Shown: positions 754 through 24,560, counted from the first letter of the stretch. The stretch: DNA of 38,134 nucleotides from Promethearchaeia archaeon (GCA_029856105.1 JAHQWH010000085.1:1-38134); one strand, 5' to 3'. Numbers and translations are program-made. Notes: generated by a model from the letters alone, not told the origin.

Positions 754-1824
754 ATGAATGTGGAAAAGGGATTAATAAACGCAATTGTTTACACAGAGAT
801 ACACGACGCAATAGGACCAAATCCTATTTATTGGGCACCTTCTGATTTACCGGAAAACATTAGAATGCTAGTTGGAATTAAAACAGTTACAATCCTTACA
901 GGAGATCAAGGAATCACCCCAGAATCTCTCCTTATTATCCCCTTCCCTTCTTTAAGGCTAAAAGGGTTAATAAGATATATTGAAAGGGAAGATGAAACCC
1001 GAAGAGGGGGGTACGCTAGGTCAGCTATTACTTTCTTGTTTAAGGAAGAGGAGGATATTATTTTCTACAAATATATGGTTTACCTGAAAGCCCCTTTCAA
1101 CGAAACGGCGAGAAAAATTAAAGAATTAGAAAACCAACAGGCTGATAGTGAAAGTATTTTTGAGGAGATAAAATTATTAGGAGATAGCGTTAGTAAGTTA
1201 CTCGAAGATTATAGAAGTAAAGAGATTGCCCCACATTCTAGTGAAGAATTTCCCGAACATAGAGATAAAAAAATAGACATTATTAAGTTTAAATTTAAAT
1301 TAGTAGTTGTAGGAGACCCTGGCGTAGGAAAAACATCAACTATTCTCCGATTTTCCGATAATGCATTTCTTAGAACTTACATTCCAACCATGGGGGTCAA
1401 TATCACGGAGAAAAGCTTCCGCGTTAAAGAGGACGTCCTTGAAGTGATATTATGGGATTTAGCTGGGCAATCAAAATTCCAAACGATGAGAAGACACTTT
1501 TATCAAGGCTCAGAAGCTATTATACTCATTTTCGATTTGACGAATCCAATATCCTTTAAAAGTATAAAGAAGTGGTACGACGATGTAATAAAGAATATGG
1601 ATAAGCAGCCTAAAATGATAGGTTATATTTTTGGAAACAAAAGCGATTTGATGGACCAAAGAAAGGTTCAAGAAAGTGAAGGGTTAGCGTTAGCTAAGGA
1701 GTTAAATCTTGAATACATAGAAACTAGCGCTCTGACAGGAAGCAACATCGAATACGCTTTTTATAAAATAGCAGAAGCAGTAATTGAAACACATTTGGAG
1801 AAATATAAAGGTAATAAAAATTAA
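754..1824 (+). CDS. Longin/uDENN-like domain fused to a Rab-like small GTPase
   Basis: C-terminal half has G1 GDPGVGKT, G2 PTMG, G3 WDLAGQ, G4 NKSD, G5 ETSAL. N-terminus AIVYTEIHDAIGPNPIYWAP resembles the start of NPRL2/uDENN longin domains. Confidence 0.88.
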   Translation: MNVEKGLINAIVYTEIHDAIGPNPIYWAPSDLPENIRMLVGIKTVTILTGDQGITPESLLIIPFPSLRLKGLIRYIEREDETRRGGYARSAITFLFKEEEDIIFYKYMVYLKAPFNETARKIKELENQQADSESIFEEIKLLGDSVSKLLEDYRSKEIAPHSSEEFPEHRDKKIDIIKFKFKLVVVGDPGVGKTSTILRFSDNAFLRTYIPTMGVNITEKSFRVKEDVLEVILWDLAGQSKFQTMRRHFYQGSEAIILIFDLTNPISFKSIKKWYDDVIKNMDKQPKMIGYIFGNKSDLMDQRKVQESEGLALAKELNLEYIETSALTGSNIEYAFYKIAEAVIETHLEKYKGNKN

Positions 1825-1832
1825 TAATAAAT

Positions 1833-2408
1833 ATGAATATTGAAGAAGCAATATATAAAAGAAGAACTATAAGAAGATATAGGCAAGACCCAATTCCAAG
1901 CGATATTCTGAAAAAATTAATTGATTACGCTCGAGTTGCTCCAATGGCTCGAAATGTTCAAGGTCTTGAGTTTGTCATCGTTGAAAATAGTGAAATAAAA
2001 GAAAAATTATTTCAATTAATTAAATTTGCCGGTTCTTTACCGGAAGACCAGCGAACTCCAGAACCAGGAAGAGAACCTACAGCGTACATAATAGTTCTTG
2101 TTAATACTGAAATTAAACCCTCATTTTTTGATTTTGATGTTGGAGCAGCGGTAGAAAATATATTATTAGGTGCAGTTAAATACGGGTTAGGGAGTTGTTG
2201 GATGGCTAACATTAAAGTCAGAAAAATTAAATCGCTATTAGAAGTTCCAGAGCAATATCAAGTTAAACACGTAATCAGCTTAGGATACCCTGATGAAGAA
2301 TCATTTATGGAACCTTATGAAGATTCATATAAATATTGGAGAAATCCCGATGGTACTATGCATGTACCAAAAAGAGATTTAGAAGATGTTATTTTCAAAA
2401 TTTTTTAA
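1833..2408 (+). CDS. Nitroreductase family protein
   Basis: RRTIRRY, APMARNVQ, AVENILLGAVKYGLGSCW and SLGYP motifs. Confidence 0.92.
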   Translation: MNIEEAIYKRRTIRRYRQDPIPSDILKKLIDYARVAPMARNVQGLEFVIVENSEIKEKLFQLIKFAGSLPEDQRTPEPGREPTAYIIVLVNTEIKPSFFDFDVGAAVENILLGAVKYGLGSCWMANIKVRKIKSLLEVPEQYQVKHVISLGYPDEESFMEPYEDSYKYWRNPDGTMHVPKRDLEDVIFKIF

Positions 2409-2411
2409 AAT

Positions 2412-3302
2412 TTAAATAAGAGCCGCCATATCCTTACAATTATATGCAATTCTCATTAAATCTCTAATTTTTTCCTTTTCTTTAAATCCTAAATCATCTA
2501 TTAGCAAATTTCCTTTTTCTATCAACTTATCTCTTTTTTTCCATACTTTATGTGCTAATTCTAAAGCTTTTTTCTGATAAGCAATCATTACATCATTAAA
2601 ATATTGCTTGATCTCTGTAAAATATTCTTTAATTTCTTCATTTAAATGCAAATCTCTTAGAATTGATCCAATATCTTCAATCTTTTCACAAAACATGCGA
2701 TAATCCATGGCTTCTAAAGGTGTAAAATCTTTATCTTCCGTAACATACACGCCTGTTCTAAGATAAGTCCTTATATGGATTACTAAAATGAAGTAAAATT
2801 TCCGTAATTGGTTAAAATTATAATTTAAATCTTCATATTTATTAGTTTCAAGGTTATCAAACATATCCAAAATAAGATATAGTAAACGTTGAATTAACTT
2901 ACGAGTAGGGATTTGTTTATAGCCAAAATTTTGGACAACTATCCTCTGAGGTTGTTCTTCAGTTATTTCCGTGTTAGGAAGACCATTAACAAACCACCTT
3001 ATTTCATCTCTTATACTCTCTTCAAATGGTTTATCTGAAAGTATTACTATATTCGATTGACCAGAAAGGCATTCTTTTACAATTTCTCGAGCAATATAGG
3101 GGTTTGAGTGAAGAATTATCTCATCAGTAGATTGATCTACTTCCTGTCTATGTTTTGGTGAAATTAATAAAGTTCCATCACTGCGAACAATGATCAATAT
3201 GGAAGATTTCTTACTTAAATTAAAATTTTCGACCCACTTTTTGGGTAGGCTAACAAAAAAAGAACCGCTAATCTTCTGCAAATTTCTATAGGTTCTTTCC
3301 AT
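2412..3302 (-). CDS. AbrB-domain / PhoU-family regulator (archaeal phosphate-uptake-regulator type)
   Basis: N-terminal RNLQKISGSFFVSLPKKWV AbrB/SpoVT motif followed by PhoU-like helical repeats. Confidence 0.8.
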   Translation of the reverse strand: MERTYRNLQKISGSFFVSLPKKWVENFNLSKKSSILIIVRSDGTLLISPKHRQEVDQSTDEIILHSNPYIAREIVKECLSGQSNIVILSDKPFEESIRDEIRWFVNGLPNTEITEEQPQRIVVQNFGYKQIPTRKLIQRLLYLILDMFDNLETNKYEDLNYNFNQLRKFYFILVIHIRTYLRTGVYVTEDKDFTPLEAMDYRMFCEKIEDIGSILRDLHLNEEIKEYFTEIKQYFNDVMIAYQKKALELAHKVWKKRDKLIEKGNLLIDDLGFKEKEKIRDLMRIAYNCKDMAALI

Positions 3303-3321
3303 ATTAATCTTATATTTTTAA

Positions 3322-3379
3322 TAATATTTAAACTTGTTTAAACAATTTATACATAATATTTAAACATACTTTAAACAAT
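3322..3379. promoter_or_regulatory. Putative operator in the divergent promoter of the AbrB/PhoU regulator
   Basis: Four TTTAAAC units in two imperfect direct repeats (TAATATTTAAAC...TTTAAACAAT), including the palindrome TTGTTTAAACAA; AT-rich, so weak. Confidence 0.4.
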
Positions 3380-3418
3380 CATTGTATTAATAAAACAAAG
3401 TTAGAGAGGTAAATATAA

Positions 3419-3658
3419 ATGACAACAAGTAGAGAAGAAGTAACTCCAATATTAAGAGAATTTCCTAAATATAAAATTATCGAAGAATTAAAAGAAGATG
3501 CTGTAAAAGAAATAAAAAAACAACTCGAGAAGAAAAAAGACATTGATCTTATCCAAAAGAAAAGAGATGAAAGAAACTGGAAAAAATCTCTGGGATATTA
3601 TGCACTTAATCCTAATAAATTTGATTTTAAGATAAGTAATTTAAAAACCAAAAAATAA
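3419..3658 (+). CDS. Small basic hypothetical protein
   Basis: 79-aa ORF with SD-like GAGGT upstream and a T-tract downstream. Confidence 0.6.
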   Translation: MTTSREEVTPILREFPKYKIIEELKEDAVKEIKKQLEKKKDIDLIQKKRDERNWKKSLGYYALNPNKFDFKISNLKTKK

Positions 3659-3909
3659 TCTTTTTTTTTAATCTTTTTAAGACCTTTTTGTAAAAACTTT
3701 ATATAAAATATGATGAATATATTATAGTTAATTGATGGGGGTTCAATCTTTAGGATTGCCCAAAGACCTACAAAAAGAAAGGAAATGCGAATTTAAATTG
3801 AAACTGCAAATATAAAATAAGTTAAACTTTTATACTATCCCGAAGTATCAAATTATACATTAAAGTAAATATTTATGTATATTTAATATTTTCTTGGAGG
3901 ATTTTTAGA

Positions 3910-4953
3910 ATGCTTATGTTATCTATATTAGGTGGACTTATTGGTTCTTCTACATTGGGCGTGCTAATAGCATTTTGTAGTTTTGGTATATATTTTTACT
4001 ATATTTCGAGAAAAACAAAGGTTAGACTTCTCTCTATTATGGGGATAAGTCTATTTTTTATTGGATTCTCTTATTTGGGAATTTGTGTCGACTTTTTATC
4101 AATTCTTATAACAGGAAACAACATAAATGTATTTTTACTTGCTTTTTTAATTTGGCCATTTGTGCCTGTTGTTTACGTCTTTGGATCTTATGTAACTGCT
4201 GAATTATTGATACCTAAGATAAAAAAACTCTACATGATCATAATTATTGCTTTAGCTTTAATTTTTGAGCTTAGTATTTTTTTAGATACATTAGGAAACA
4301 TTACGTTTATTGAACCTACCCCTCCTGGTGCTGAATTGATCGATGATAGTCTTATTACAGGGTCAATTGCTGGTCTTATCGGAACTATTTTTACGTTCTT
4401 AGGAATTTTTATATCTGGGATCGGCATGCTTATTAAAGGGTATCGGTTATCAGGGGTAGTTAGAAAGAAATATCATCAGTTAGCAATAGGATATTTAATT
4501 CTTAATGTATCGGCTTTGTTAGATTTTTTGGGTATCGCCGAGATCGTTGCAATAATTCGGATTGCCTCATTAAGTGCCGTTTGGTTTTTCTATTTAGGTT
4601 TAAGGGAAGAACCTGAAAAGCGTGAGAAGAAAGAAAAGAAAAAAGAGATGAAAATTGAGGAATCCTTGTTTAGATTAACTAAAAGACCTGCGCAAATAAC
4701 TGAAGAAGAAGTTACTTATTATCGAGAACAAAAAATATGTATGATATGTAAAGGTAAAGTTAGCGGATTTAATATTTTTTTATGTCCTAATTGTGAAACT
4801 ATTTATCATGAAGAATGTGCTCGTGCTTTAAGTAATGCTGAAAATGCGTGTTGGGTTTGCAATGGGCCTATAGATAATTCAAAACCTTCAAAACCATTTA
4901 AAATTGAATCACCCGATAAGGAACAAATAGGAATAGTAAAACCTATAAAATGA
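3910..4953 (+). CDS. Multi-pass (~7 TM) membrane protein with C-terminal C4HC3 RING-like zinc finger, putative E3 ligase
   Basis: About seven hydrophobic segments, a charged linker, then CMIC-x11-CPNC-x4-H-x2-C-x10-CWVC; GGAGG SD; adjacent to Ubl/E2/E1/JAMM genes. Confidence 0.8.
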   Translation: MLMLSILGGLIGSSTLGVLIAFCSFGIYFYYISRKTKVRLLSIMGISLFFIGFSYLGICVDFLSILITGNNINVFLLAFLIWPFVPVVYVFGSYVTAELLIPKIKKLYMIIIIALALIFELSIFLDTLGNITFIEPTPPGAELIDDSLITGSIAGLIGTIFTFLGIFISGIGMLIKGYRLSGVVRKKYHQLAIGYLILNVSALLDFLGIAEIVAIIRIASLSAVWFFYLGLREEPEKREKKEKKKEMKIEESLFRLTKRPAQITEEEVTYYREQKICMICKGKVSGFNIFLCPNCETIYHEECARALSNAENACWVCNGPIDNSKPSKPFKIESPDKEQIGIVKPIK

Positions 4954-5004
4954 TTAAAAAAAAAAAAGAGTATGGATTATAAGGATCTCAGTCGAAAACA
5001 CTAA

Positions 5005-5112
5005 GACTGGTGGGTATGTAACGAGCCAATAGGTAAATTGAAACAAAGTACATCATTTGATATAATAAAATCATACAAAGAAGAGGATTTGTTGAAAAAA
5101 TCAAAAGAATAA
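5005..5112 (+). pseudogene. Decayed 3' remnant of a RING-protein paralog
   Basis: Translates DWWVCNEPIGKLKQSTSF..., similar to the upstream gene tail ACWVCNGPIDNSKPSKPF; no start codon, preceded by a stop. Confidence 0.5.
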
Positions 5113-5164
5113 TATATGTATTTGAATATAATTTTAAATAGAATATTAATATGAGTTATGTCTT

Positions 5165-5422
5165 ATGAAAATATCGGTTGAAGATACAAGAACTGGGAAG
5201 GTTATCAAGCTTGATGTTAAAGAACATCATATAATTGAACGGATAATTGATATTGTAATAAAACACATGGGAATAATTAGCTCTGAGCAAAGGTCATATA
5301 CATTAGTTCTTGAAGATAAGGAACTACCAAGCACAATTACCATTGCTGATGCAAAACATAAATTTGGGCTAAAAGATAATGCCAATTTAGCATTATGGGC
5401 GAGGGTAGTGGGCGGATATTAG
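5165..5422 (+). CDS. Ubiquitin-like protein ending GG-Y
   Basis: MKISVEDTRTGKVIKLDV aligns with ubiquitin MQIFVKTLTGKTITLEV; beta-grasp length; C-terminus LWARVVGGY. Confidence 0.88.
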   Translation: MKISVEDTRTGKVIKLDVKEHHIIERIIDIVIKHMGIISSEQRSYTLVLEDKELPSTITIADAKHKFGLKDNANLALWARVVGGY

Positions 5423-5496
5423 CCTTTTCGCTTACAATATTTTTAATCTTTCATTTTTTTACAAACAATATTAAATAACAAGACACATATTTGATT

Positions 5497-6063
5497 TTAA
5501 TCATCCACTACCAGAATATCATCTATTTCTTCTTCCTCTTCTTTATCGCTACTTTTAAATTCATTCATAAGCAATTCAATAGAATGCGATTTAAAATATT
5601 CAGCTGACTTCAAACAAAGATCATAATTAAGAGGATCATCAGGATTTGGATTCTCGACTAATTTTTTTAGTGCTTTGATTGAAGTTTCCAAATCTGATAG
5701 TCTTGACCATTTTTTTAGAATATTAAGGCAGATATAACCTGTACCAGATTCATTTAAAGTTCGAATATCAACTGGATGGATATTTGGATGGAAAATATTC
5801 GAATACCAAGAGAAATCTATTCCTCCTGGATATGGAAATGATCTATTTAATTTTAGAAAAATGCGATGAGATTTCTTTGGACTTAAATTTATTCCTTCCT
5901 TGCTATGATCTTGCACAAATCCTAAAGCTTCAATGTTTATCCAAAATTCAACATTACTTTCATGCCATTTAATTGATTCATCTTCTATTAAATTTGATTT
6001 ATTTAAAATATTCATTTCGTTATTTATTCGATCTTTCCATATCTCATAAGGTAGTTCTGGCAT
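5497..6063 (-). CDS. Ubiquitin-conjugating enzyme E2 (UBC fold)
   Basis: FPY, IFHPNI, catalytic ICLNIL..W, NPNPDDPLN, acidic C-terminal tail. Confidence 0.92.
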   Translation of the reverse strand: MPELPYEIWKDRINNEMNILNKSNLIEDESIKWHESNVEFWINIEALGFVQDHSKEGINLSPKKSHRIFLKLNRSFPYPGGIDFSWYSNIFHPNIHPVDIRTLNESGTGYICLNILKKWSRLSDLETSIKALKKLVENPNPDDPLNYDLCLKSAEYFKSHSIELLMNEFKSSDKEEEEEIDDILVVDD

Positions 6064-6128
6064 CGTTTTGTATGTAATTTTTTTTTATATTTAATATCTT
6101 GCTTATATTAATTTTATATTTTATATTT

Positions 6129-7019
6129 TTAATCTTTTTTATTGGACTTTATGAAGGAACAGATCCAACAATTAGGATCCTTTGCCTTCTCAATTATTTT
6201 AAAGCTGTTGGTAAGTCCATTATAATTCAATTGTTTTCCAATAAGTGGTTTTCCTATTTGGGAATCCCATATTCCATACTCTTTAAAATAATCAATACCT
6301 AATACGAATTTTAATACTTGTTGCGATTGAATACCTCCTATTATTGAAGTTGTAGTTATAAACGATGCGATTTTACCCACAGTTTCTCCATCTTCAGTAT
6401 TTAGTTCTTTACCTGTACATGAAAACTTTTTCCACATCAAATCTAAATCTTTATTAGAGATTCCGCATTGTAAGCATGCAGAGTTTTTATCTTTAGAATA
6501 AACCGCTTGTACAGTCCCAAAATAACCATCAATTCCAGAATCAATAAATGGAATGCCAAAATAATAGGAATAATTATTTGCTTCTAAACGTGCCTCAATG
6601 TTATCCAAACAGGAGCAAATAACATCGTTTTGTTCATAAATATTTTTTTCTACTTTATTTAAATCTTCTTTAATGGTAATAAATTTTACTTCTGGATTTA
6701 TATCTCTGCATGCTTCTTTAATTACATCTGCCTTATATTCATTCTTCTCAGCTGATTTCGAATTAAATAGCACACATCTGTTTAAATTGGATAAATCAAT
6801 AAAATCATAATCGATTAAAGTAATAGTTCCTATACCTGACAAAACTAAATTTTTTATGACTTCATTACCCGTTGCTCCAGCACCAATTACCATTACTTTT
6901 GAATTACGGATTTTATTTTGATCCCATCCTTTTATTCGTTTTTGACGATCATACTTATCTGATTCTATGGAATCAATATTCTTTACTTCAATATCTATTG
7001 AATCGTTTTTTTCATTCAT
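6129..7019 (-). CDS. Ubiquitin-activating enzyme E1 (ThiF/UBA family)
   Basis: YDRQ, GAGATG, DYDFIDLSNLNR, CLDNIEAR, zinc pairs CLQC and CWIC, candidate catalytic Cys in FSCT. Confidence 0.92.
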   Translation of the reverse strand: MNEKNDSIDIEVKNIDSIESDKYDRQKRIKGWDQNKIRNSKVMVIGAGATGNEVIKNLVLSGIGTITLIDYDFIDLSNLNRCVLFNSKSAEKNEYKADVIKEACRDINPEVKFITIKEDLNKVEKNIYEQNDVICSCLDNIEARLEANNYSYYFGIPFIDSGIDGYFGTVQAVYSKDKNSACLQCGISNKDLDLMWKKFSCTGKELNTEDGETVGKIASFITTTSIIGGIQSQQVLKFVLGIDYFKEYGIWDSQIGKPLIGKQLNYNGLTNSFKIIEKAKDPNCWICSFIKSNKKD

Positions 7020-7049
7020 TTATTTAAGTATTATTTTTTTTTAAAAGCT

Positions 7050-7547
7050 TTATTTTGAGGATATTATCGCATTACTTATAGCTTTATATCCTAATCCTGA
7101 TTTTTTATCGAGCGTGAAAAATTTAAATTCATCATTGATTGGATCTACAACTAATGCTACTTGATATGATTCCGGAAAAAAAAACTCTTGGGTGTGTAGA
7201 TCTGTACTTGATAAAAAACAACCAAAATTGGGATGTGAATGCCACCATCCAACTATCCTCAAACTATCATTTTTTTTAAGATTTTTTAACTTTTGAAACT
7301 CTTTTTCATATTCCCCTGCAGTTCCTTCAATTTGAGAAGTTGAAAATTGATGACTATTAACCGCATTATCAATAAACAATTGTTCTTCAATAATTATATA
7401 TAAATCATTCTTCCACTTTAAGATATTTCCAATTAAATAGCCAAAAATTTCCTTGCTTGAATCTCTACTTAAATTTATAATTTGTTCTAAGGTATTGTCG
7501 TAAATGTAGACCGGAAATATAAAATCGTTAGTTTTTGACATAAACAT
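7050..7547 (-). CDS. JAMM/MPN+ metalloprotease (Rpn11/CSN5-like deubiquitinase)
   Basis: KEIFGYLIG and [18 protein letters not shown] motifs. Start placed at ATG 7547 (or 7541) rather than 7658, which overlaps the upstream gene. Confidence 0.92.
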
Positions 7548-7572
7548 GTCCTTATCTTTTATAGTATTAGAA

Positions 7573-10221
7573 TTAACGCGTACTTTGAATAAAATGACGC
7601 TTTTTATTTTTTTCAATTTCCCACTTTTTACGCTCAGAACGAAGTTTAAATAGGTCAAGATCTTTATAAATTAAACTTTCTTCTCTGGGAGGTACAATTC
7701 TTTCGATTCTATCTTTTTCTGGAGTATATATAAGAGATTCTCCATATTCTGCTATATTTACAAAAAAGCAATAAGCATAAATAGATCTACGAGCATCAAA
7801 ATGAGCAGCCTTAAAATCAGCAGTTACTGGCGTATAAGCTGGATTTAAAATTAAGTCAATCGGGGGTTCGAAATTTTTTAATTCTACTCTTAAATCCATA
7901 TCAAGAAAATCCCGGCATATTATAATTGCTATTCTTCCATATTCAGTATTGCAAACAATAGTTTTACGTGGTAACGTACCAACATTTATCCCTTCTTCAA
8001 ATTTTTTACTTTGAAAATGTATTATTGCTGGAATATGTTTCTCTTGCTCCCAAAGAATTCCTTCTGGTCCAATTACTTTGCAAACATTACGATTATTTTC
8101 TATGTTATGGAACGAACCGGGAATAATGTACATTTCATATGATTTTGCTAAATCTGAAAGTTCTTCTAAAATTTTACCATAATTTAGATCAATAGCCATT
8201 TCTGGGAAGACTAAAATGTTGATTCCTTTGTTATAAGCTTGCTCTATCATCATTCTAACCTTTTTCTGGACTAAATCAATTTTATCTACTTTTATTCCGA
8301 TCAAACCCGATCCTTTTTCTTCGTAAAATTCACTCAATAAATCACCAGAAGATGATACTCCTATTTGAGCTATACCTATCCTACATTCCCTTTTTTGGAT
8401 CTTAGAATATTTTTGCATTAAATCTTTATAAAGCAATTTATATTTCTTTTTGGTACTTGAAATATCCTTTATCTTTCTACTCGTCTTCTCAGATAAAGTG
8501 GGTGGTAATATCTTTAATGTGCTTTTAGATAGTGAGGGTTCACTAATAGTATCTAGGGCAGAAATAATAATTTTTTCTTCCTTTTTCACCAACTCTAAGC
8601 GTTCCATTACTTCTTTTTCTTTATCTTTATACCCTGCTTTTTCAAATAATTGGGCTGCTGATTTAAGCATGCCCGACCCTATATCTAATAGTCTTTTCTT
8701 TTCATCAAGTTTAAATTCTTCATCTGCACTAATAATGTACCATGTTGCATCGAAAAATGTTGATGTTGCGAGAGCCCAATCTGCTTCATTTTCAAAACCA
8801 CCTTTATGATATGAATTTGCGGCATTTCTCAACATCATTTTAATTTCAGGATAATATCCCGCTTTTTTAGTTTTATCAGTTGATTTATCAAATTTGGATC
8901 CTAATTCTAAGGCTTGGCAGAATGCAGCATTTCCTAAAGCTAATGATTTATATTTCAAATCAGTGAAATAATCGCTTGCTTTATTAAATAAGTCAGCGGC
9001 TTCAGCATACTGATTAGGGTCTTTACATTCTTCAGCTAATTCCATACATTCCCAAGCCTTGCAGAGATGGAAAATTGCATTCAATTCATCGTTATCTTGT
9101 ATATTTTCTATATGGGAAAAAAGTTCTTTAAATTGATCTGCTGCACAAGAAAATCTCTCTGCTGCGGAGACATAATCTCCTTGCTTTTCTAAAATTTTAG
9201 CTGCTTCAATTTGATCCCAGATTACAGAATAATCTATATTGATCTCCTCTATATTGGGAGTTTCTTCTGATTTAATTTGTTCAACTGAATTGACCTTAGT
9301 TTCATCCTGTTTTATATTTACATAATTTTTTTCTTGCTTATCTAAAACAAAATTCTTTAGAATTTCCCTTAAAATTGAAATTAATTTATTTTTAGAATCG
9401 TCTTTAATTGCTGAAAATCCAAATGTCTTAATATTAAATGTTTCTTCAATTTTCTGAGGTTTAAACGCAGTATCTTCAAGATCTTGAAAATTTGCAATTA
9501 AATAAAGATCAGCTTTCCGAAACTTGGCCTTTAATTTGGAAATTAACTCTTGAGTTCTACCCAAGTTACTTGCTGCAGAATTAGATACAATAAGCACTAT
9601 ATCGCTCGATGTTAATAAATCTTTATAAAGGTTAGAACTATTTGCTAACTTACTTAAATCGACTTCTCTGATTGAACATTCTTTAATCCCATTCAAATTG
9701 TTGATTTTAATTGATTTATTAACGATTTCATTTAATTCGTCATCTAATTCTATTATAGTTTCTCCAGGTAAAATTTCAATAATTGTTGTTTTACCTACAC
9801 CAAATTCTCCAGTCATTAAGATTTTGGGAGGTATGAAAATGTTTTCTTCAACATATTTATCAAATTCTTTAAACACACTAATATCTCCAGACCAATTTTC
9901 GAGATATCGTTTATATTTGTTTATGAATTCATTCTTCATTAAATCCACTTTACTTTTAGCTTCATCTTCCAAATCATCTTTATCTATTACAATAATAAAA
10001 ATTAAATTATAATCAACAGAATATGAATAAATAAAATTAAATTCCCTAAAGAGAAGAGCTTTAACTTCACCACCCTTTATTTCTTTAGCAAAATCACTAA
10101 ATGCTTTGAGGAAACCACTAAGTATACCCTCATCGAAAGCAATTTTTCTAAAAAAACTTTTAGAATAACAAAGGATTCCTCCGAAACCAATTATGAATAA
10201 CTTTAATATCACTAAATCCAT
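7573..10221 (-). CDS. Fusion protein: longin-like domain, degenerate small GTPase, TPR/SNAP-like helical repeats, nitrilase (carbon-nitrogen hydrolase) domain
   Basis: Longin-like N-terminus; P-loop [10 protein letters not shown]4-like ANFQD, G5 SAI; Ala-rich helical repeats; nitrilase triad VFPE / QEKH / IICRDF. Confidence 0.85.
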
Positions 10222-10329
10222 CCTATTTTACGTTTTTGTGATTAATTTAATAAAAGATAAAGTTATTAATTAAAGTGATTGTAAAATTTTTCTTAATAAA
10301 TACGAGAATAACGAACGTAGGTGCTTAAT

Positions 10330-10470
10330 ATGAATGAAAAAGATGCTAATCAAGAAGCGGATAATTCATATCCCCAAATAATCCTCTCTGAAAGTAAAAA
10401 AATACAAGAAAAAAAACCTCCGAATGAAAAAATCCTCTATTTCAATATTGAAGAAGATATTGGAGAGTAA
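10330..10470 (+). CDS. Possible 46-aa acidic small protein
   Basis: MNEKDANQEADNSYPQIILSESKKIQEKKPPNEKILYFNIEEDIGE with SD-like AGGTG upstream; not in the ORF track. Confidence 0.4.
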   Translation: MNEKDANQEADNSYPQIILSESKKIQEKKPPNEKILYFNIEEDIGE

Positions 10471-10509
10471 TATTCGAATACAGTTCCAAAACTTTTTTAA
10501 ATTGATTAG

Positions 10510-11088
10510 TTATACTTCTCTACTCATTTTTTGAAGTTCTAGTGATAATTTTTTGTGCTTATAATATAATTCATCTATTATTGCTTGAAATGCTTCAGTT
10601 ACACCCTCACCTGTTAAAGCTGAAGTTATGAAATAACCTAAAAATTCTCTTTTTCTAATTAATTTTAACACTTTTGACTCGTTAAGAATATTCTTATCAA
10701 TCAAATCTGCTTTGTTACCCAGAAGGATAATAGGGATCTTTCCACAGAATTTTTTAATATCATTATGCCAACTGGAAATATGTTTAAAACTGTCTTTTCC
10801 AAGTTGATTATCCTCAAGAGAATATACGATGATGGCAGCTCTACTTTCTTGATAAAATGAAGGGCGTAGAAAAAAGAATTCATCTTGTCCTGCTATATCC
10901 CAGAAATAAAGTGTACAAGTATCACCCTCAATATTTTGAGTATACTTAGAAAACTGGGCACCGATGGTTCGGATATAATTCGTTTGAAAACTTCCTTGAG
11001 TAAATTTCTTAATCAATGATGTTTTACCTACCATTCCATCGCCAATTACCGTTATTTTAAAAACAAATTCGCCTTTTGTGCTTGACAT
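10510..11088 (-). CDS. Rab-like small GTPase
   Basis: GDGMVGKT, RTIG, WDIAGQ, NKAD, TSAL; no C-terminal prenylation Cys. Confidence 0.93.
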   Translation of the reverse strand: MSSTKGEFVFKITVIGDGMVGKTSLIKKFTQGSFQTNYIRTIGAQFSKYTQNIEGDTCTLYFWDIAGQDEFFFLRPSFYQESRAAIIVYSLEDNQLGKDSFKHISSWHNDIKKFCGKIPIILLGNKADLIDKNILNESKVLKLIRKREFLGYFITSALTGEGVTEAFQAIIDELYYKHKKLSLELQKMSREV

Positions 11089-11239
11089 TGCTTTAATGAA
11101 TGACTCGTGAATTTAATCTTGAATCTATATATTTCTAATCAAGATCTTTTCTCATATAAAATTTTGTAACTTTAGTTCCTTTCAAAAATGTTTAAAATTA
11201 TTAAAAAATAATAAACTTAGTACTTTAAGGTGATTTGAA

Positions 11240-12031
11240 ATGGAACATAAGATAGAGCGTAAAATGGAAAGTATGTTTGGATTATTAGGAATTATCATCG
11301 CATTAAGTTTTATATTAACTGCGGCTATTTTAACTCCCGGTTATAACCCATTACTAAATACGGTAAGTTCTTTAGGAGAAGGAGTAGCAAAAACCTTATT
11401 TAGTATAGGATTTGTTATTGCCGGATCTTTAGGTATACCATTTTTTATTCAACTCGAAAGAGAACTAATAAATATCAAGGAAAGCATTAGAAAATTAGCT
11501 ACTGGAGTATCAATTTTCAGCTGTGTTTGTATAGGTTTAGTAGGAATAATCCCTGATAAGTCATATCTTGATTTATTTTTTGCTTTCCACTATTTTGTAG
11601 CAATTGTAAGTTTTGCAGGAACATCAGCTTATATTGGATTATATAGTTATTTAATGTACATAGGAAGCTCATTAATAAGCTACACTGGTCCTAAGTTTAA
11701 GAGATATTTATCTTATCTGGGAATGGTAATTGTTATCGTTTTTTTTTTATTAATCTTTTCTTTACAGCCTATTGTTGAATGGATATTAACGATCCTTATC
11801 ATTATTTGGATCTTAATTACATCAATTCAAATGCTCTCCTTCAAGTTTTTCAATATTCCAGGAGTATATTATAAAAAAGCAGATTATCCAAAAGCTTTAA
11901 ATAAATTTGAGCAAGCATTTGAAATTCTTAATCATCTTGAATTAACAGACGAGCCAATAATGAAGACACTTGAAGAAAATATCAGCTTTTTAAAAGGTAA
12001 ATTACAAGACAGTGAAAAAGAAAAACAATAG
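11240..12031 (+). CDS. DUF998 / Frag1-DRAM-Sfk1-like membrane protein with TPR-like C-terminal tail
   Basis: PGYNPLLNTVSSLG, GLVGIIP, H in FHYFVA, PIVEW; tail GVYYKKADYPKALNKFEQA is TPR-like; GGTGA SD. Confidence 0.75.
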   Translation: MEHKIERKMESMFGLLGIIIALSFILTAAILTPGYNPLLNTVSSLGEGVAKTLFSIGFVIAGSLGIPFFIQLERELINIKESIRKLATGVSIFSCVCIGLVGIIPDKSYLDLFFAFHYFVAIVSFAGTSAYIGLYSYLMYIGSSLISYTGPKFKRYLSYLGMVIVIVFFLLIFSLQPIVEWILTILIIIWILITSIQMLSFKFFNIPGVYYKKADYPKALNKFEQAFEILNHLELTDEPIMKTLEENISFLKGKLQDSEKEKQ

Positions 12032-13462: not shown

Positions 13463-14185
13463 TTGCTACTTCAGAGCGCGTTAACAGAAAGAATTATTAT
13501 AGTTAGTATATTCCAAATATGGCCAATTATTTATGAATCTTTTTTTGCGTATAAATTATTAAAACGCGCAACAAATCGTTCAACAGCCACTCTAAGTTGC
13601 CTTTTTAGTTTTAATGCACTAGCTTATTTCCTAACCTCTGCTTCAATCTTTCTTACAAATACCCCCTTTGCATATCTCTGCTATATAATTGGTTTTTTTG
13701 CGTTTATATTCGCTCATAGTTTTATAATAATTTTTAGTTGGCTTATCGCAAATCTTGACAAGAAATTATCTTCCAAGTATTATTTAGGGATTTTAATTTA
13801 TGGAATCTTATCAACTTATGTCTTCTGGATAGGAATATTTTTCGAAGGGATTCGATACGATTCTGGCACAATTTGGATACCAATTTTTAGCTGGTTATTT
13901 CTTTTTATCAGTTATAGCTATACAATAGTTTTTTTAATCGTTCCCGAAATAATATTAGCCGTAAAGCTAATAAATATATTTGAAGGTGTACCGTTAAAAC
14001 GAAGAATTAAATTGTTTATTATTAGCGTATTTTTAGAACTTACTATTGTACTTCTCTTAGTTTTGTATAATACTTGGATAAATGTTACTCCTTTTTTCAA
14101 GGTATTTTATCTATTTATAATGCCACCCTTAGGCATTTTAGCAGCTTTTTTTATTTACAAGAGCTTTGGAAAAGCATTAGAATAA
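13463..14185 (+). CDS. Stand-alone ~7 TM membrane protein
   Basis: About seven hydrophobic helices; similar layout to 21646-22380 and to the N-terminal part of 3910-4953. Confidence 0.7.
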   Translation: MLLQSALTERIIIVSIFQIWPIIYESFFAYKLLKRATNRSTATLSCLFSFNALAYFLTSASIFLTNTPFAYLCYIIGFFAFIFAHSFIIIFSWLIANLDKKLSSKYYLGILIYGILSTYVFWIGIFFEGIRYDSGTIWIPIFSWLFLFISYSYTIVFLIVPEIILAVKLINIFEGVPLKRRIKLFIISVFLELTIVLLLVLYNTWINVTPFFKVFYLFIMPPLGILAAFFIYKSFGKALE

Positions 14186-21485: not shown

Positions 21486-21560
21486 TGTAACTCCTACATT
21501 ATCTTATTTTTGATTAGTAATATATCAGTGTTTATCAGTTTCATAAAAAATAAAAAAAAA

Positions 21561-21635
21561 TTAAATAAGAGCCGCCAAATCCTTACAATTATATGCAATT
21601 CTCATTAAATCTCTAATCTTTTCCTCTTCTTTAAA
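21561..21635 (-). pseudogene. 75-bp copy of the 3' end of the AbrB/PhoU regulator gene (2412-2486)
   Basis: 72 of 75 nt identical by manual alignment; encodes FKEEEKIRDLMRIAYNCKDLAALI* versus FKEKEKIRDLMRIAYNCKDMAALI*. Confidence 0.9.
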
Positions 21636-21645
21636 AATACTTTAC

Positions 21646-22380
21646 TCAATCATTTCTAATTAACCATTTAGCTATTCGATCTGGTAATAAAAAACCTAAA
21701 TAGTACTCAATCGCACTTGATATTAATAACAATCTTATAATTATGACACCCGTAATTCCTAATTCAAAACCAGAATCTAATATTGCTGATATCGCAAATG
21801 AAATGAAAGCAATTAATAGAAATCTCCCTTTCCATTGAACCTTTGGATCCTTTGATTTTAAGGATTTTAGAGCAAAGAGAACCCCTGTAATTAAGGCTGA
21901 AATTATAGCAAATGCTTGAAAAATCCTTGTAAAAGATAGATATCTTGCGTCGAAAGTCCCGTCAAATTCTCCAATAACATTTACATCAATTACCATAAAG
22001 ATAAGAAAGAATATTATGAAAATAATACTTATTAATGAATAAACTATTAGTAAAATCTTTTTCGCCTTAACATACGCCATTTTTGCGAATGAGTATATCC
22101 AACATATTATTGCCACAGGAATAAATATATTTCCAATAAGGAAAAAAACATGAATTTCCCATAATACACCAAAGAAAATATATGAAAGAAATGAAAATGG
22201 TGCGGACCACCATGGTGAAGAAAGACAAATCCAAGCAAGTCCTACCAAGATTAATTCTTTTGCATTAACAGAAAAATACTTCAATAAAATCTTAATACCA
22301 ACAATTAAGGAAATTATCACAAAAAGCAATGTAAAAGATGCGATTATTATATTTTCTTGAGATAAAATTTGTAAAATCAT
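21646..22380 (-). CDS. Stand-alone ~7 TM membrane protein
   Basis: About seven hydrophobic helices; MILQ start and layout similar to 13463-14185. Confidence 0.75.
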   Translation of the reverse strand: MILQILSQENIIIASFTLLFVIISLIVGIKILLKYFSVNAKELILVGLAWICLSSPWWSAPFSFLSYIFFGVLWEIHVFFLIGNIFIPVAIICWIYSFAKMAYVKAKKILLIVYSLISIIFIIFFLIFMVIDVNVIGEFDGTFDARYLSFTRIFQAFAIISALITGVLFALKSLKSKDPKVQWKGRFLLIAFISFAISAILDSGFELGITGVIIIRLLLISSAIEYYLGFLLPDRIAKWLIRND

Positions 22381-22499: not shown

Positions 22500-24560
22500 T
22501 TAGAACGGACCATCTAAGCTCATAAAAACGCAAGGGTGATCAGCAGCGGTCCCTCCAGTATATGTGATTGAGGAGACTGATGTATTAAGCCCCCCAGATA
22601 CGAAGATATGATCAATTCTTCCATCTGGAAGTATAGTCTCCCAACCTTCCGGTACATTGCCAATTGTCTTTCCTAGGGCAACTTCCCAACAATCGTATAA
22701 TTGTGCTACTGTTATATTGTATTGTTCGGTACCAAGTTCAAAGTTAAAATCTCCCATTAATATTACGTTGCTCAAACCGTTAGTTACCGACAAAATATTT
22801 TCTTGTTGGACAATTTGCGAAAGATCTTCTGCAGGGTCTTCGTAATTTCCTAGGTGTGTAACGAAAATATTGAATGTTGTACTTCCAACCATAATTTGAG
22901 CCCATATAGTCGCTGTTTGTTCCCCGTTACTTTCCATATAAAAAGTTTTAGGGTTTAAGATCGGATATTTTGAAAGTAATGCAATTCCAAAAGTTCCAGT
23001 TAATGTTTTTGGTCCAAAGTATGAATACAACTTCAATCGATTACTAACGAATCTAACAATATCTGAATTTCCACCTGAAATTCTGCAAGTATCTGATTCT
23101 TGTAATCCTATGATATCAGCATCCAGATATCTAATAACTTGAAATTGAGCGTCAAAATTTTTGTTACCTGATTCGTCTGATCCTTGTTGTATGTTATATG
23201 ATAAGACTTTTAAAGAATCTCCAGATACATCGTGATCTATAGGGAATTCTAACACTACAGCTCCAATAATTGTCGTTAAACTAATCATGACAATTATTAC
23301 CATGGCTTTTTTTTTGTTTTTGACGGATGAATTAATTGATTCAAATGTACCTCTTGAGGCTTTATTTATTAAAAAGAGCGGTAAGAACACGACCACTCCT
23401 AATATTAAGTATATAGCCCAGATTGCGTCTCTAAATAAATCTCCGATTAAAGGAATGTAGTCCCATACAATCGTAAAAACAGCAGATAAAATCATAATTA
23501 AGAAAAAGCCAGACGAGACGAAAAAACTACCGCCTAATTTTCTCATACCTGGTCTACTTCTAAATAACTCGCTCGATAGTAATATAAAATCAAGTAAGAT
23601 TATTGGGCTTAGAACTAGCATAATCATTAGCATTGCTTCGTTAAACATATTTGCGTCAGGAGGATAGAACGGATAAAACGGAACAAAGGCAAAGATTACA
23701 GTATTTCCTAATATGGTTAAAGTTAGCGTCGCAATAAAAGTAACATTCCAAATAGTAACTATATATGATTTCAATTTCCCGATTATACCAGGGTTAGAGA
23801 TTACAAGAATTATAAAAGCAGAATTTACTAAAACGAGAAGGGTTAGAATTAAAATGTAATTTGATTCCGTCCACCTTGTTATAACTGTAGGGCTGCTAAA
23901 TACGAAATATATCAGAGTTATTACGCTTATCATTCCTAGAGTTAATCCGATAATTTTCCATTTGCTTGCTGGTTTAAAGCCACTTTTAGTTATGTCGCTT
24001 GAAGAGGTTGAGCTTTGCTCTGAGTTTGCTAAATGGAATATCATCAATCCCGCAAATATTGCTAATATCCACCCAATCCACATGAACCAACTGTATGCAG
24101 ATAGATCAATAGAAGATCCTAGCGTTCGCAATAAGATCGATAATAATAATCCTAAACCTAACCCAGCTCCTAATAAAATTCCGTTGCTTTCGTGGTTTCC
24201 TTTTGTTTTTTTATGAAGGTAAACTGGAAAAAAAATCATAAAACAAGCCAATCCGAATCCTGTGACAAGCATTTTTAGTTGAACATCTAAAAAAGGTTGT
24301 AAGACTCTACAAATAACAATAAACTCACCGATTGCGATAAAAGCTTTGTTAGGAAAACCTCTTTTGAAGAATAAAAGCAGAAATGGAGTCAAAAGAAATA
24401 ACAAAGCTAAGATATTCTCGTTCAATTCAACTTCAATGAGATTTAACGCGTATATCGATTCTAAGAACTCTGTCATGAGTTGGAAGAAGAATAGAAACAT
24501 TATACTGAGAAAGACTAATTCTGAATAGAATTTATTAATAAATTTGTTATAGATTTCCAT
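22500..24560 (-). CDS. Multi-pass membrane protein with C-terminal EEP (endonuclease/exonuclease/phosphatase) domain, CWH43/PGAP2IP-like
   Basis: ~440-aa hydrophobic region then SYNIQQG, GLQESD, LLSKYPI, THLG, MGDFN, RIDHIF, DH. Confidence 0.85.
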   Translation of the reverse strand: MEIYNKFINKFYSELVFLSIMFLFFFQLMTEFLESIYALNLIEVELNENILALLFLLTPFLLLFFKRGFPNKAFIAIGEFIVICRVLQPFLDVQLKMLVTGFGLACFMIFFPVYLHKKTKGNHESNGILLGAGLGLGLLLSILLRTLGSSIDLSAYSWFMWIGWILAIFAGLMIFHLANSEQSSTSSSDITKSGFKPASKWKIIGLTLGMISVITLIYFVFSSPTVITRWTESNYILILTLLVLVNSAFIILVISNPGIIGKLKSYIVTIWNVTFIATLTLTILGNTVIFAFVPFYPFYPPDANMFNEAMLMIMLVLSPIILLDFILLSSELFRSRPGMRKLGGSFFVSSGFFLIMILSAVFTIVWDYIPLIGDLFRDAIWAIYLILGVVVFLPLFLINKASRGTFESINSSVKNKKKAMVIIVMISLTTIIGAVVLEFPIDHDVSGDSLKVLSYNIQQGSDESGNKNFDAQFQVIRYLDADIIGLQESDTCRISGGNSDIVRFVSNRLKLYSYFGPKTLTGTFGIALLSKYPILNPKTFYMESNGEQTATIWAQIMVGSTTFNIFVTHLGNYEDPAEDLSQIVQQENILSVTNGLSNVILMGDFNFELGTEQYNITVAQLYDCWEVALGKTIGNVPEGWETILPDGRIDHIFVSGGLNTSVSSITYTGGTAADHPCVFMSLDGPF

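Follow-up and report, generated by a model that had tools for sequence, protein, structure and literature searches.

We analyzed a 38,134-nt stretch of DNA (G+C content ~30%), referred to below as the window, from a Promethearchaeia archaeon belonging to the Loki-type Asgard archaea. At positions 3910-11088 it encodes a ubiquitin-like protein (Ubl), the enzymes E2 and E1, a JAMM metalloprotease, a RING-type finger borne on a seven-transmembrane (7TM) domain, a multidomain fusion that starts with longin and Arf-like domains, and a Rab-like GTPase. This gene set represents a variant form of the archaeal ubiquitin operon; it is an accessory system restricted to one lineage, and it does not constitute a prototype of signaling in eukaryotes. 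We interpret the block that contains it as a self-contained Ubl conjugation system derived from the Caldiarchaeum-type operon, with two lineage-specific additions and a proposed membrane mechanism; we estimate the probability of this interpretation at about 0.6. The assignment of a complete conjugation system is based on domain calls, invariant motifs, synteny, the longin and Arf-like folds, the seven-helix model, and low ratios of nonsynonymous to synonymous divergence (dN/dS). All seven genes that an earlier note on this DNA had claimed are present, and its observation is thus confirmed, whereas its interpretation is supported in part.

Conjugation enzymes and their gene order

The pro-Ubl gene (5165-5422, plus strand) encodes an 85-aa protein ending in VVGG-Y, that is, with a single residue (Tyr) after the invariant Gly-Gly; in its 25 orthologs, which have a mean column identity of 78%, the invariant GG is followed by 0-9 variable residues. 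No Pfam model, including that of ubiquitin, matches the Ubl, and its assignment derives from the ortholog profile. Among the listed PDB matches of this profile almost all are ubiquitin or its variants, with residues 7-84 aligned to ubiquitin residues 6-76 and GG placed on GG. In addition, the Ubl aligns over its full length with the GG-ended Ubl of an out-group Ubl-E2-JAB operon (hhalign E 2.7e-5). The E2 (188 aa; 5497-6063, minus strand) is recognized by the UQ_con model (E 5e-10, 39.5 bits against a cut-off of 27), its FHPNIHP motif and Cys112 are invariant in 38 orthologs, and its best PDB matches are eukaryotic E2 enzymes (E ~1e-6). The JAMM/MPN+ metalloprotease (165 aa; 7050-7547, minus strand; JAB, E 1.6e-12), whose motif residues E33, HSHP, S, and D do not vary among 48 sequences, has its best PDB matches in Rpn11 (8.6e-11) and in CsRpn11 of Caldiarchaeum (6fjv, 2e-9), by analogy with which it is a candidate Ubl-maturing and deconjugating enzyme. 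Its gene starts with the ATG at 7547 (or 7541) and not with the TTG at 7658, which overlaps the fusion gene. The catalytic motifs that the earlier note had seen as intact in E2, E1, and JAMM are conserved across the orthologs of these enzymes.

The C-terminus of E2 (5497-5540) forms a conserved acidic/hydrophobic tail with the consensus DDIxIIDD, and two paralogs of the longin-GTPase described below (L072:5284-6231 and L073:1613-2569) terminate in a similar EEDDDIIIYVD. These tails resemble Ubl-binding motifs of the SUMO-interacting (SIM) and Atg8-interacting (AIM) types and may serve as a putative non-covalent docking site for the Ubl.

The E1-like adenylating enzyme (296 aa; 6129-7019, minus strand; ThiF, E 1e-51) has a nucleotide-binding motif, a zinc tetrad (C182/C185/C284/C287), and C201 that are invariant in 50 sequences; the protein ends just past the second CxxC and has no C-terminal ubiquitin-fold domain. 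An E1 of the ThiF/MoeB family with MoeB-like length and a zinc tetrad is also what would be expected for activation of a sulfur carrier of the MoaD/ThiS type instead of protein conjugation. We regard this explanation as extremely improbable: among PDB entries the E1 best matches the active adenylation domain of Uba1 from yeast (E 4e-29), far ahead of MoeB (1e-18), an E2 with HPN-Cys, a RING finger, and a JAMM protease are all present and conserved, and there are no rhodanese domain or cofactor-synthesis genes nearby.

Synteny was compared in 53 Promethearchaeota (Loki-type) loci, the E2 orthologs of which show 54-78% identity, and in three distant loci added from Desulfurococcales and Caldarchaeales; the tallies count only loci with enough flanking DNA. 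The core gene order comprises a longin plus Arf-like GTPase-like protein followed by JAMM, E1, and E2, with the GG-ended Ubl converging on E2 and the 7TM-RING gene usually located near. The E2 ortholog is adjoined by E1 in 49/49 loci and by JAMM in 48/48, the longin-GTPase gene is found upstream of JAMM in 34 out of 37 loci, the Ubl gene is convergent in 41 out of 44, and a RING finger of the module type occurs within a few kb in 28 out of 31. Linkage of the RING and longin-GTPase genes to the ubiquitin genes, on which the earlier note had staked its proposal, is thus retained. The fusion, JAMM, E1, and E2 genes of the window are separated by 25, 30, and 65 nt, in line with the short gaps described previously, and across the loci the gaps among the longin-GTPase, JAMM, and E1 genes range from -4 to ~100 nt, with up to ~290 nt before E2.

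The Ubl and E2 genes are convergent, their stop codons lying 74 nt apart, and a TATA-like sequence, TTTAAATA, is located ~28 nt 5' of the Ubl ATG; the fusion gene also has its own AT-rich TATA-like sequence upstream. The Rab/Ras-like GTPase gene (192 aa; 10510-11088, minus strand; Ras, E 1e-41, all G motifs) lies 288 nt upstream of the fusion gene, and the interval contains oligo-T runs. The earlier note was correct in placing a Rab-like gene upstream on the same strand; however, this gap with its oligo-T runs and the TATA-like sequence before the fusion gene suggest that the Rab gene is probably transcribed separately. The likely transcription units are therefore (i) Rab, (ii) fusion-JAMM-E1-E2, and (iii) RING, possibly together with Ubl, the last converging on E2.

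The same genome encodes a canonical ubiquitin operon on contig C18 (C18:50150-53200; L086:6152-9200), which comprises Ub (PF00240, 110 aa), E1 (410 aa), E2 (175 aa), and JAB (272 aa), in addition to a lone E2 on contig C48 and ESCRT-III (Snf7) genes of the endosomal sorting complex required for transport (ESCRT) on contigs C8 and C225. The enzymes of the two systems can hardly be aligned (E2 BLAST E = 2, E1 29% identity), the C18 E1 has ~110 more C-terminal residues than the E1 of the window, and comparison of the Ubl profile with the C18 Ub reveals no detectable similarity (hhalign probability 1.3%). Since the canonical operon lies elsewhere in the genome, the window system constitutes a separate pathway, as was proposed in the earlier note. 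Its statement that ESCRT and proteasome genes are absent also agrees with the Pfam scan, which detected neither family in the window open reading frames scanned; tRNA genes and Rfam families were likewise not found in the window. The C18 Ub ends in ...STAGYF with no obvious GG, and the C18 JAB gene is followed by a gene for a 371-aa protein without a Pfam match.

Membrane-borne RING finger and longin/Arf-like fusion protein

The 7TM-RING protein (347 aa; 3910-4953, plus strand) was assigned from its AlphaFold2 (AF2) model and from zinc-ligand conservation. It is composed of a membrane domain (residues 1-235), a linker, and a cross-brace zinc finger (residues 277-317), and the model (pLDDT 80.6) contains seven transmembrane (TM) helices and a beta-hairpin on the external side, with the linker disordered and the finger of beta-beta-alpha form. 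The finger has the spacing C-x2-C-x11-C-x2-C-x4-H-x2-C-x10-C-x2-C, with zinc ligands C277, C280, C292, C295, H/C300, C303, C314, and C317 conserved and W315 invariant in 20 orthologs. The C4HC3 type given in the earlier note applies to the protein of the window, which has His as the fifth ligand; the family, however, is C4(C/H)C3, with Cys at this position in most orthologs. The finger profile matches RNF4 (E 5e-5), Mdm2, TRIM37, synoviolin, and many other RING E3s, and hhalign (91.6%, E 8e-7) identifies as its homolog the small RING protein, 105 aa in length, encoded in an E1-E2-JAMM operon of Desulfurococcales; unlike that of a small soluble RING E3, the finger forms the tail of a seven-helix membrane protein. 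These sequence relationships make the 7TM-RING protein a candidate membrane-anchored E3. The RING-finger profile finds exactly one copy in this genome, and RING genes are frequently tandem paralogs among related loci.

When the 7TM-RING model was compared with known structures by VIA, the top 50 matches were all 7TM receptors or microbial rhodopsins (Z 11-13.6), and a Foldseek search against PDB returned nothing at E <= 0.001. In the ESM Atlas, a Promethearchaeota cluster with 78 members combines the 7TM module (window 3910-4629) with TIR_2 (TM-score 0.94), whereas in another cluster, of 587 members, the module stands by itself; it also resembles HisKA_7TM, the 7TM head found in histidine kinases (TM-score 0.73). 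Because the module stands alone, occurs fused to TIR, and resembles a histidine kinase head, the modeled 7TM part is best described as a sensor-type module with interchangeable outputs. The 7TM-TIR architecture also hints at a family of membrane sensors with exchangeable effector tails. Two other TM proteins of the window (13463-14185 and 21646-22380) were considered as possible relatives of the 7TM domain and rejected, as tblastn (E <= 1e-4) detected paralogs only on contigs C211 and C219. The small Lys/Glu-rich protein encoded upstream of the RING gene (79 aa; 3419-3658, plus strand) has no Pfam match; its homologs (43-86% identity) are found beside the RING gene in 8 related loci, and its dN/dS relative to the closest relative is 0.86, a figure that is based on few changes.

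The 882-aa fusion protein (7573-10221, minus strand) combines longin, Arf-like, TPR-like, and nitrilase regions. Residues 1-131 (9829-10221, minus strand) are modeled as a longin domain (AF2 pLDDT 80.1), for which VIA yields VAMP7 (Z 14.4, root-mean-square deviation 2.3, 119 aligned residues), the CPLANE longin (Z 14.4), and Sec22 (Z 13.8); there is also a weak profile match to the SRX domain (E 0.018). Residues 127-300 (9322-9843, minus strand) have an Arf-like small-GTPase fold with a degenerate switch II, supported by Foldseek (Arf1, E 3.8e-9) and VIA (Z 16.5 with an Arf1 chimera). In this domain the G1 motif GxxGVGKT and the G5 motif SA are conserved, and the G4 motif NFQD (N244-F-Q-D247) is invariant; however, the G3 motif DxxG, aligned to DVGG of Arf1, reads D-L-S-K here and D-L-E-D in the consensus, and its glycine is lost. 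Judging from these motifs, the longin/Arf-like protein probably binds nucleotide but has no canonical switch.

Residues 301-607 (8401-9321, minus strand) are predicted to form a low-complexity linker and TPR-like helical repeats; the middle region shows only sub-threshold matches to MIT (E 0.0035) and TPR (E 0.0035-0.07 overall), and an MIT domain was accordingly not called. Residues 608-882 (7573-8400, minus strand) constitute a nitrilase-superfamily (C-N hydrolase) domain (CN_hydrolase, 24.8 bits against a cut-off of 23.2), in which the Glu-Lys-Cys triad E674/K728/C769 is invariant in 18 sequences. Its PDB match is Nit2 (E 5e-6), the best-scoring model is a reverse-transcriptase-associated nitrilase from PADLOC (E 3.4e-13), and the ESM Atlas neighbors of the middle region are Promethearchaeota families of 576 aa and 1277 aa that contain TPR and CN_hydrolase domains. 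A nitrilase is adjacent to JAMM in just 10/37 loci, all from one clade, and is located within 10 kb in 9/22, which does not bear out the role of the nitrilase fusion as a part of the system that the earlier note envisaged. In the tree of longin-GTPase domains, all fused forms fall into one group (SH-aLRT 98) that also includes solo forms, some of them from loci in which a large TPR-nitrilase protein is encoded separately in the vicinity; this tree is compatible with a single origin of the fusion, and from its distribution the nitrilase fusion is a sub-clade variant. The longin-GTPase of the module subfamily is present in a single copy in this genome.

The neighborhood could also be explained by ordinary cytosolic Ubl tagging for the proteasome or for quality control, with the 7TM-RING, longin-GTPase, nitrilase, and Rab genes as functionally unlinked neighbors. 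The nearest inspected out-groups of the E2 fit this explanation, as they belong to compact Ubl-E2-JAB-x-E1 operons without a GTPase or 7TM gene, and the Rab gene is demonstrably separable from the module (see G016 below). Complex prediction for the longin-GTPase domain and JAMM, with scores of 0.00, 0.46, and 0.00 in three runs, does not bear on the question either way. On the other hand, the longin-GTPase gene is located directly upstream of JAMM in the great majority of loci, with gaps down to -4 nt that suggest translational coupling, the RING gene found within a few kb encodes the sole finger of its kind in the genome, and the small RING E3 that operons of TACK archaea encode is a homolog of this finger. 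We therefore consider unlinked cytosolic tagging improbable and retain the membrane-associated conjugation system as the preferred interpretation.

An accessory block with mosaic divergence

The distribution of the E2 type was determined in 301 genomes of the phylum, representing 70 genera and about 30 families. It is found only in the family of the window organism (33/68 genomes; by genus 11/27, 18/22, 3/5, and 1/2), with 0/233 in the sampled genomes from the rest of the phylum. In the genus of the window, where 11 of 27 genomes are carriers, several congeners without this E2 type are 100% complete. A search of 1.84 billion representative proteins with the E2 profile retrieved six clusters at E <= 1e-30 and 84 at E <= 1e-10. 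Confinement to one archaeal family, with patchy occurrence within the genus, indicates that the module is not an ancestor of eukaryotic signaling and does not fit the suggestion in the earlier note of a possible prototype of membrane- and GTPase-linked ubiquitin signaling.

In the congener G016 (100% complete, no E2 ortholog), the syntenic site contains the Ras-like gene and the nitroreductase gene, followed directly by the orthologs of the Rab (82% identity) and DUF998 (88%) genes. Because G016 keeps Rab directly beside the nitroreductase gene, the region from 2409 to about 10545 of the window is an 8.1-kb presence/absence block, produced by either insertion here or deletion in G016. The block contains the AbrB-like, 79-aa, 7TM-RING, Ubl, E2, E1, JAMM, and fusion genes. 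The Rab-like and Ras-like genes are located outside the block and are retained in G016 without it, which weakens the case for them as parts of the pathway. The Rab subfamily has five further paralogs in this genome (52-62% identity), and its G1-G5 motifs are conserved. A Rab of the window subfamily is found within 10 kb of the module in 12/22 loci, more often than six copies per 3.7 Mb predict by chance, yet it is not obligate; the Rab is thus loosely linked to the module. The Rab gene is adjoined by the gene for a DUF998 membrane protein (11240-12031), and this pair is kept in 13 loci, including the congener without the ubiquitin block.

At the other end of the block, the AbrB/MazE-type protein (296 aa; 2412-3302, minus strand; MazE_antitoxin, E 9e-8) is absent from the syntenic site of G016 and occurs in just a handful of related loci (L030, 94% identity; L034, 65%); it may be a local regulator of the block. 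At its ends, the block shows neither an integrase or transposase nor a target-site duplication. A single long repeat was detected, an 80-nt direct repeat (95% identity) at 2407-2486 and 21556-21635, 19 kb apart; its first copy, which is the 3'-terminal part of the AbrB-like gene, falls precisely on the left block edge, and the second lies between an enolase-family gene and a gene for a TM protein. This repeat suggests past duplication or recombination around the block.

Nucleotide identity and synonymous divergence (dS) were compared with L030, the closest carrier genome. The segment at 1990-4690, covering the 3' part of the nitroreductase gene and the regulator, 79-aa, and RING genes, is 92-99% identical (dS 0.08-0.25), and the Rab-DUF998 segment at 10690-11890 is 89-94% identical (dS 0.16-0.37). 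In contrast, the intervening segment at ~4990-10690, which contains the Ubl, E2, E1, JAMM, and fusion genes, has an identity of 43-87% (43% in the RING-Ubl spacer and 64-87% in the genes) and dS of 0.75-1.46. The dN/dS values for RING, Ubl, E2, E1, JAMM, and the fusion are 0.08-0.19, a sign of purifying selection. The combination of high dS relative to the flanks and low dN/dS argues for cassette exchange and not for positive selection or decay, and points to the Ubl-E2-E1-JAMM-fusion cassette as a putative unit of exchange through allelic replacement by recombination.

Another sharp change occurs outside the block, where the Ras-like gene (window 790-1700) is ~72% identical to its L030 counterpart (dS 2.4) and the neighboring nitroreductase gene is at least 90% identical; by this sequence comparison, the border between them is a second sharp recombination boundary. 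The corresponding 356-aa protein (754-1824) contains a Ras-family GTPase domain (E 2e-47) after a 180-aa N-terminal extension, for which only a faint Folliculin-like match was found (E 0.09). About ten related loci have its orthologs, often in tandem, next to the nitroreductase gene, as does the congener without the ubiquitin block.

The accessory distribution is also expected for an antiviral or conflict system, an archaeal counterpart of Bil and of CBASS (cyclic oligonucleotide-based antiphage signaling system) Cap2/Cap3, in which the 7TM-RING protein would sense envelope stress or infection, the Ubl would be attached to proteins of the invader or the host, and the nitrilase would act as an effector. 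The module shares its four-part set of enzymes with Bil-type systems (PMC10557695, PMC11601596) and is missing from complete genomes of a genus in which only a minority are carriers. It forms a clean presence/absence block relative to a congener, and dS in its enzyme cassette exceeds that in the flanks about five-fold, suggesting exchange between lineages. Furthermore, the nitrilase scores best against a model associated with defense reverse transcriptases (RT), the same 7TM domain is TIR-fused in sibling proteins, and both RING and longin-GTPase paralogs occur in tandem at many loci. However, PADLOC has no match for the RING, Ubl, and E2 proteins, its E1 and JAB matches are generic, family-level ones, and it has none for the Rab. 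The recurrent flanking families are metabolic or regulatory (winged helix-turn-helix-TPR proteins, an ATP-binding cassette solute-binding protein, and dehydrogenases), with no restriction, CRISPR, or abortive infection genes seen; dN/dS is low throughout, without a sign of diversifying selection, and the block ends carry no integrase or transposase. We thus view a conflict function as rather unlikely, though as a serious alternative and less improbable than unlinked cytosolic tagging.

Among the flanking families, a winged-helix plus TPR protein of 600-680 aa is encoded near the module in 17 related loci (e.g., L035:10257-12298) and is absent from the window. Farther downstream, the window encodes a large TM protein (22500-24560) with a C-terminal domain of the PGAP2IP/EEP type (E 8e-25).

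Proposed mechanism and relation to known systems

For the preferred interpretation of a membrane-associated conjugation system, we propose the following sequence of steps, the first three by analogy with characterized systems. As in the reconstituted Caldiarchaeum system, JAMM would remove the tail of the pro-Ubl and later reverse the conjugates. E1 would adenylate the Ubl and hand it over, probably via the invariant Cys201, to Cys112 of E2. The RING finger at the cytoplasmic end of the 7TM protein would then bind the E2~Ubl, so that tagging takes place at the membrane. The protein architectures further suggest that, through the 7TM sensor-type module, a cue from the membrane or from outside could govern the activity of the ligase or its choice of substrate, that the longin/Arf-like protein is most likely a nucleotide-binding adaptor or scaffold and not a timer switch, and that the fused nitrilase-type amidase of the sub-clade could prepare or edit substrates or conjugates. 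Turnover or sorting of membrane proteins and conflict or defense are the candidate physiological roles.

Several observations weigh against this interpretation. The conjugation cascade is predicted from gene sequences, and the sequence link between the Ubl and ubiquitin is weak for single domains (E 0.07-0.5). The Pfam RING, PHD, and C1 matches to the finger are all under their cut-offs (E ~1e-4), and its profile likewise matches the C1 finger of PKC, the PHD finger of KMT2D, and the finger of TFIIH p44; given these sub-cut-off matches and cross-matches, E3 activity is a prediction only. The resemblance of the model to 7TM receptors is confined to the level of helix arrangement (Z <= 13.6, Foldseek E >= 4e-3). 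As the switch II glycine of G3 is lost, a true GTP switch is doubtful, and so is the control of conjugation by GTPase modules put forward in the earlier note. In G016, which lacks the module, the Rab and Ras genes are retained. Finally, the patchy range together with cassette exchange, the defense-like nitrilase, and the TIR-fused 7TM siblings are as compatible with a conflict system as with housekeeping sorting.

A more specific version of the membrane mechanism, quite tentative and less likely than not, holds that the 7TM-RING protein is a receptor-ligase whose RING is switched on by a ligand or by the state of the membrane, with the longin/switch-dead Arf-like adaptor picking the targets and the fused nitrilase in an editing role. 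If true, Ubl tagging would be an output of transmembrane signaling in a prokaryote, and a receptor-to-E3 pathway would have arisen independently of eukaryotes and been exchanged between lineages as a cassette.

Archaeal ubiquitin operons serve arguments on the origin of eukaryotic ubiquitin signaling. The system described here, if correctly interpreted, implies that the minimal Ub/E1/E2/RING/JAMM kit was rebuilt independently among the Asgard archaea as a membrane-anchored version tied to trafficking-type longin/GTPase-like proteins, and that this version behaves as an exchangeable accessory cassette and not as a vertically inherited core trait. It also calls for caution, in that not all pairings of ubiquitin and GTPase genes in Asgard archaea are ancestral to eukaryotes. 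With one E1, one E2, and one RING in the Ubl-E2-E1-JAMM kit of this genome, and with all proteins small, it would provide a compact system for studying the coupling of a RING ligase to a 7TM sensor. The literature searched contains no mention of this operon, of a 7TM-RING protein, or of a longin-GTPase heading JAMM-E1-E2.

Among known systems, the archaeal ubiquitin operon of the Caldiarchaeum type comes closest. In Caldiarchaeum subterraneum, the operon encodes Ub, an E1-like protein, an E2-like protein, and a small RING finger protein (srfp), with an adjacent Rpn11-like JAMM (PMC5654768, PMC6043591, PMC3082918); srfp acts as an E3 (PMC5654768), and CsRpn11 matures the pro-Ub (PMC6043591). 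Archaeal ubiquitin operons have been sorted as "Cluster I-III" (PMC5654768). The window system shares with the Caldiarchaeum type the five predicted activities, a short pro-Ubl tail after GG, a short ThiF-type E1, and the match between JAMM and CsRpn11, and identities of 30-39% link its E2, E1, JAMM, and RING finger with their counterparts in operons of Caldarchaeales and Desulfurococcales. It differs in that the RING finger is carried on a 7TM domain and not by a soluble protein of ~105 aa, the enzyme operon is headed by a longin plus Arf-like protein fused to TPR and nitrilase regions, the gene order is different, and the Ubl is missed by the Pfam ubiquitin model.

Other Asgard ubiquitin genes form Ub-ESCRT clusters, although in Lokiarchaeota the Ub and ESCRT genes are found in separate regions (PMC9192718), and a Hodarchaeial cluster combines UEV-Vps23, Ub, Yip1, and Rab (bioRxiv 10.1101/2023.07.25.550441). 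The window system resembles the ESCRT-linked clusters in its Asgard host and E1/E2/JAB/Ubl logic, and Loki-type Ub genes are likewise apart from ESCRT; in contrast to these clusters, it has no ESCRT gene in the window, no C-terminal Ub-fold domain in E1, and a patchy range within one family. Longin-GTPase fusions of the Rag/Arf-like class have been described in Prometheoarchaeum MK-D1 (PMC10933270; bioRxiv 10.1101/2020.10.19.343400), where the genes for GTPases and those for their regulators generally do not share an operon (PMC10933270). The fusion of the window has the same N-terminal longin followed by an Arf/Rag-like G domain as the Asgard longin/roadblock-GTPase fusions, and a generic 300-aa longin-GTPase family is found in every relative searched; unlike these proteins, the window subfamily is single-copy, tied to a JAMM-E1-E2 operon, and devoid of the G3 glycine.

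Bacterial Bil and CBASS Cap2/Cap3 systems (PMC10557695, PMC11601596) are similar in having an accessory Ubl + E1 + E2 + JAB set, and the nitrilase domain of the window matches the nitrilases associated with defense RTs (the PADLOC DRT model). Unlike Bil and CBASS, the window system has a candidate RING E3, its E1 and E2 are distinct polypeptides whose motifs are eukaryote-like, and it has no cyclase, RT, or defense-island context.

The eukaryotic ligases MARCH, Hrd1/synoviolin, and Doa10 have a polytopic membrane domain that bears a RING on the cytoplasmic side, which brings E2~Ub to substrates in the membrane. The 7TM-RING protein is similar in principle, since its RING is also membrane-borne and the RING of synoviolin is among the weak matches of the finger profile. 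However, its membrane part has no sequence or topology homology to these ligases and is instead shared with TIR-fused and stand-alone archaeal proteins; we make no claim of a link by descent, and the 7TM-RING protein resembles the eukaryotic membrane RING ligases in the placement of its finger at the membrane.

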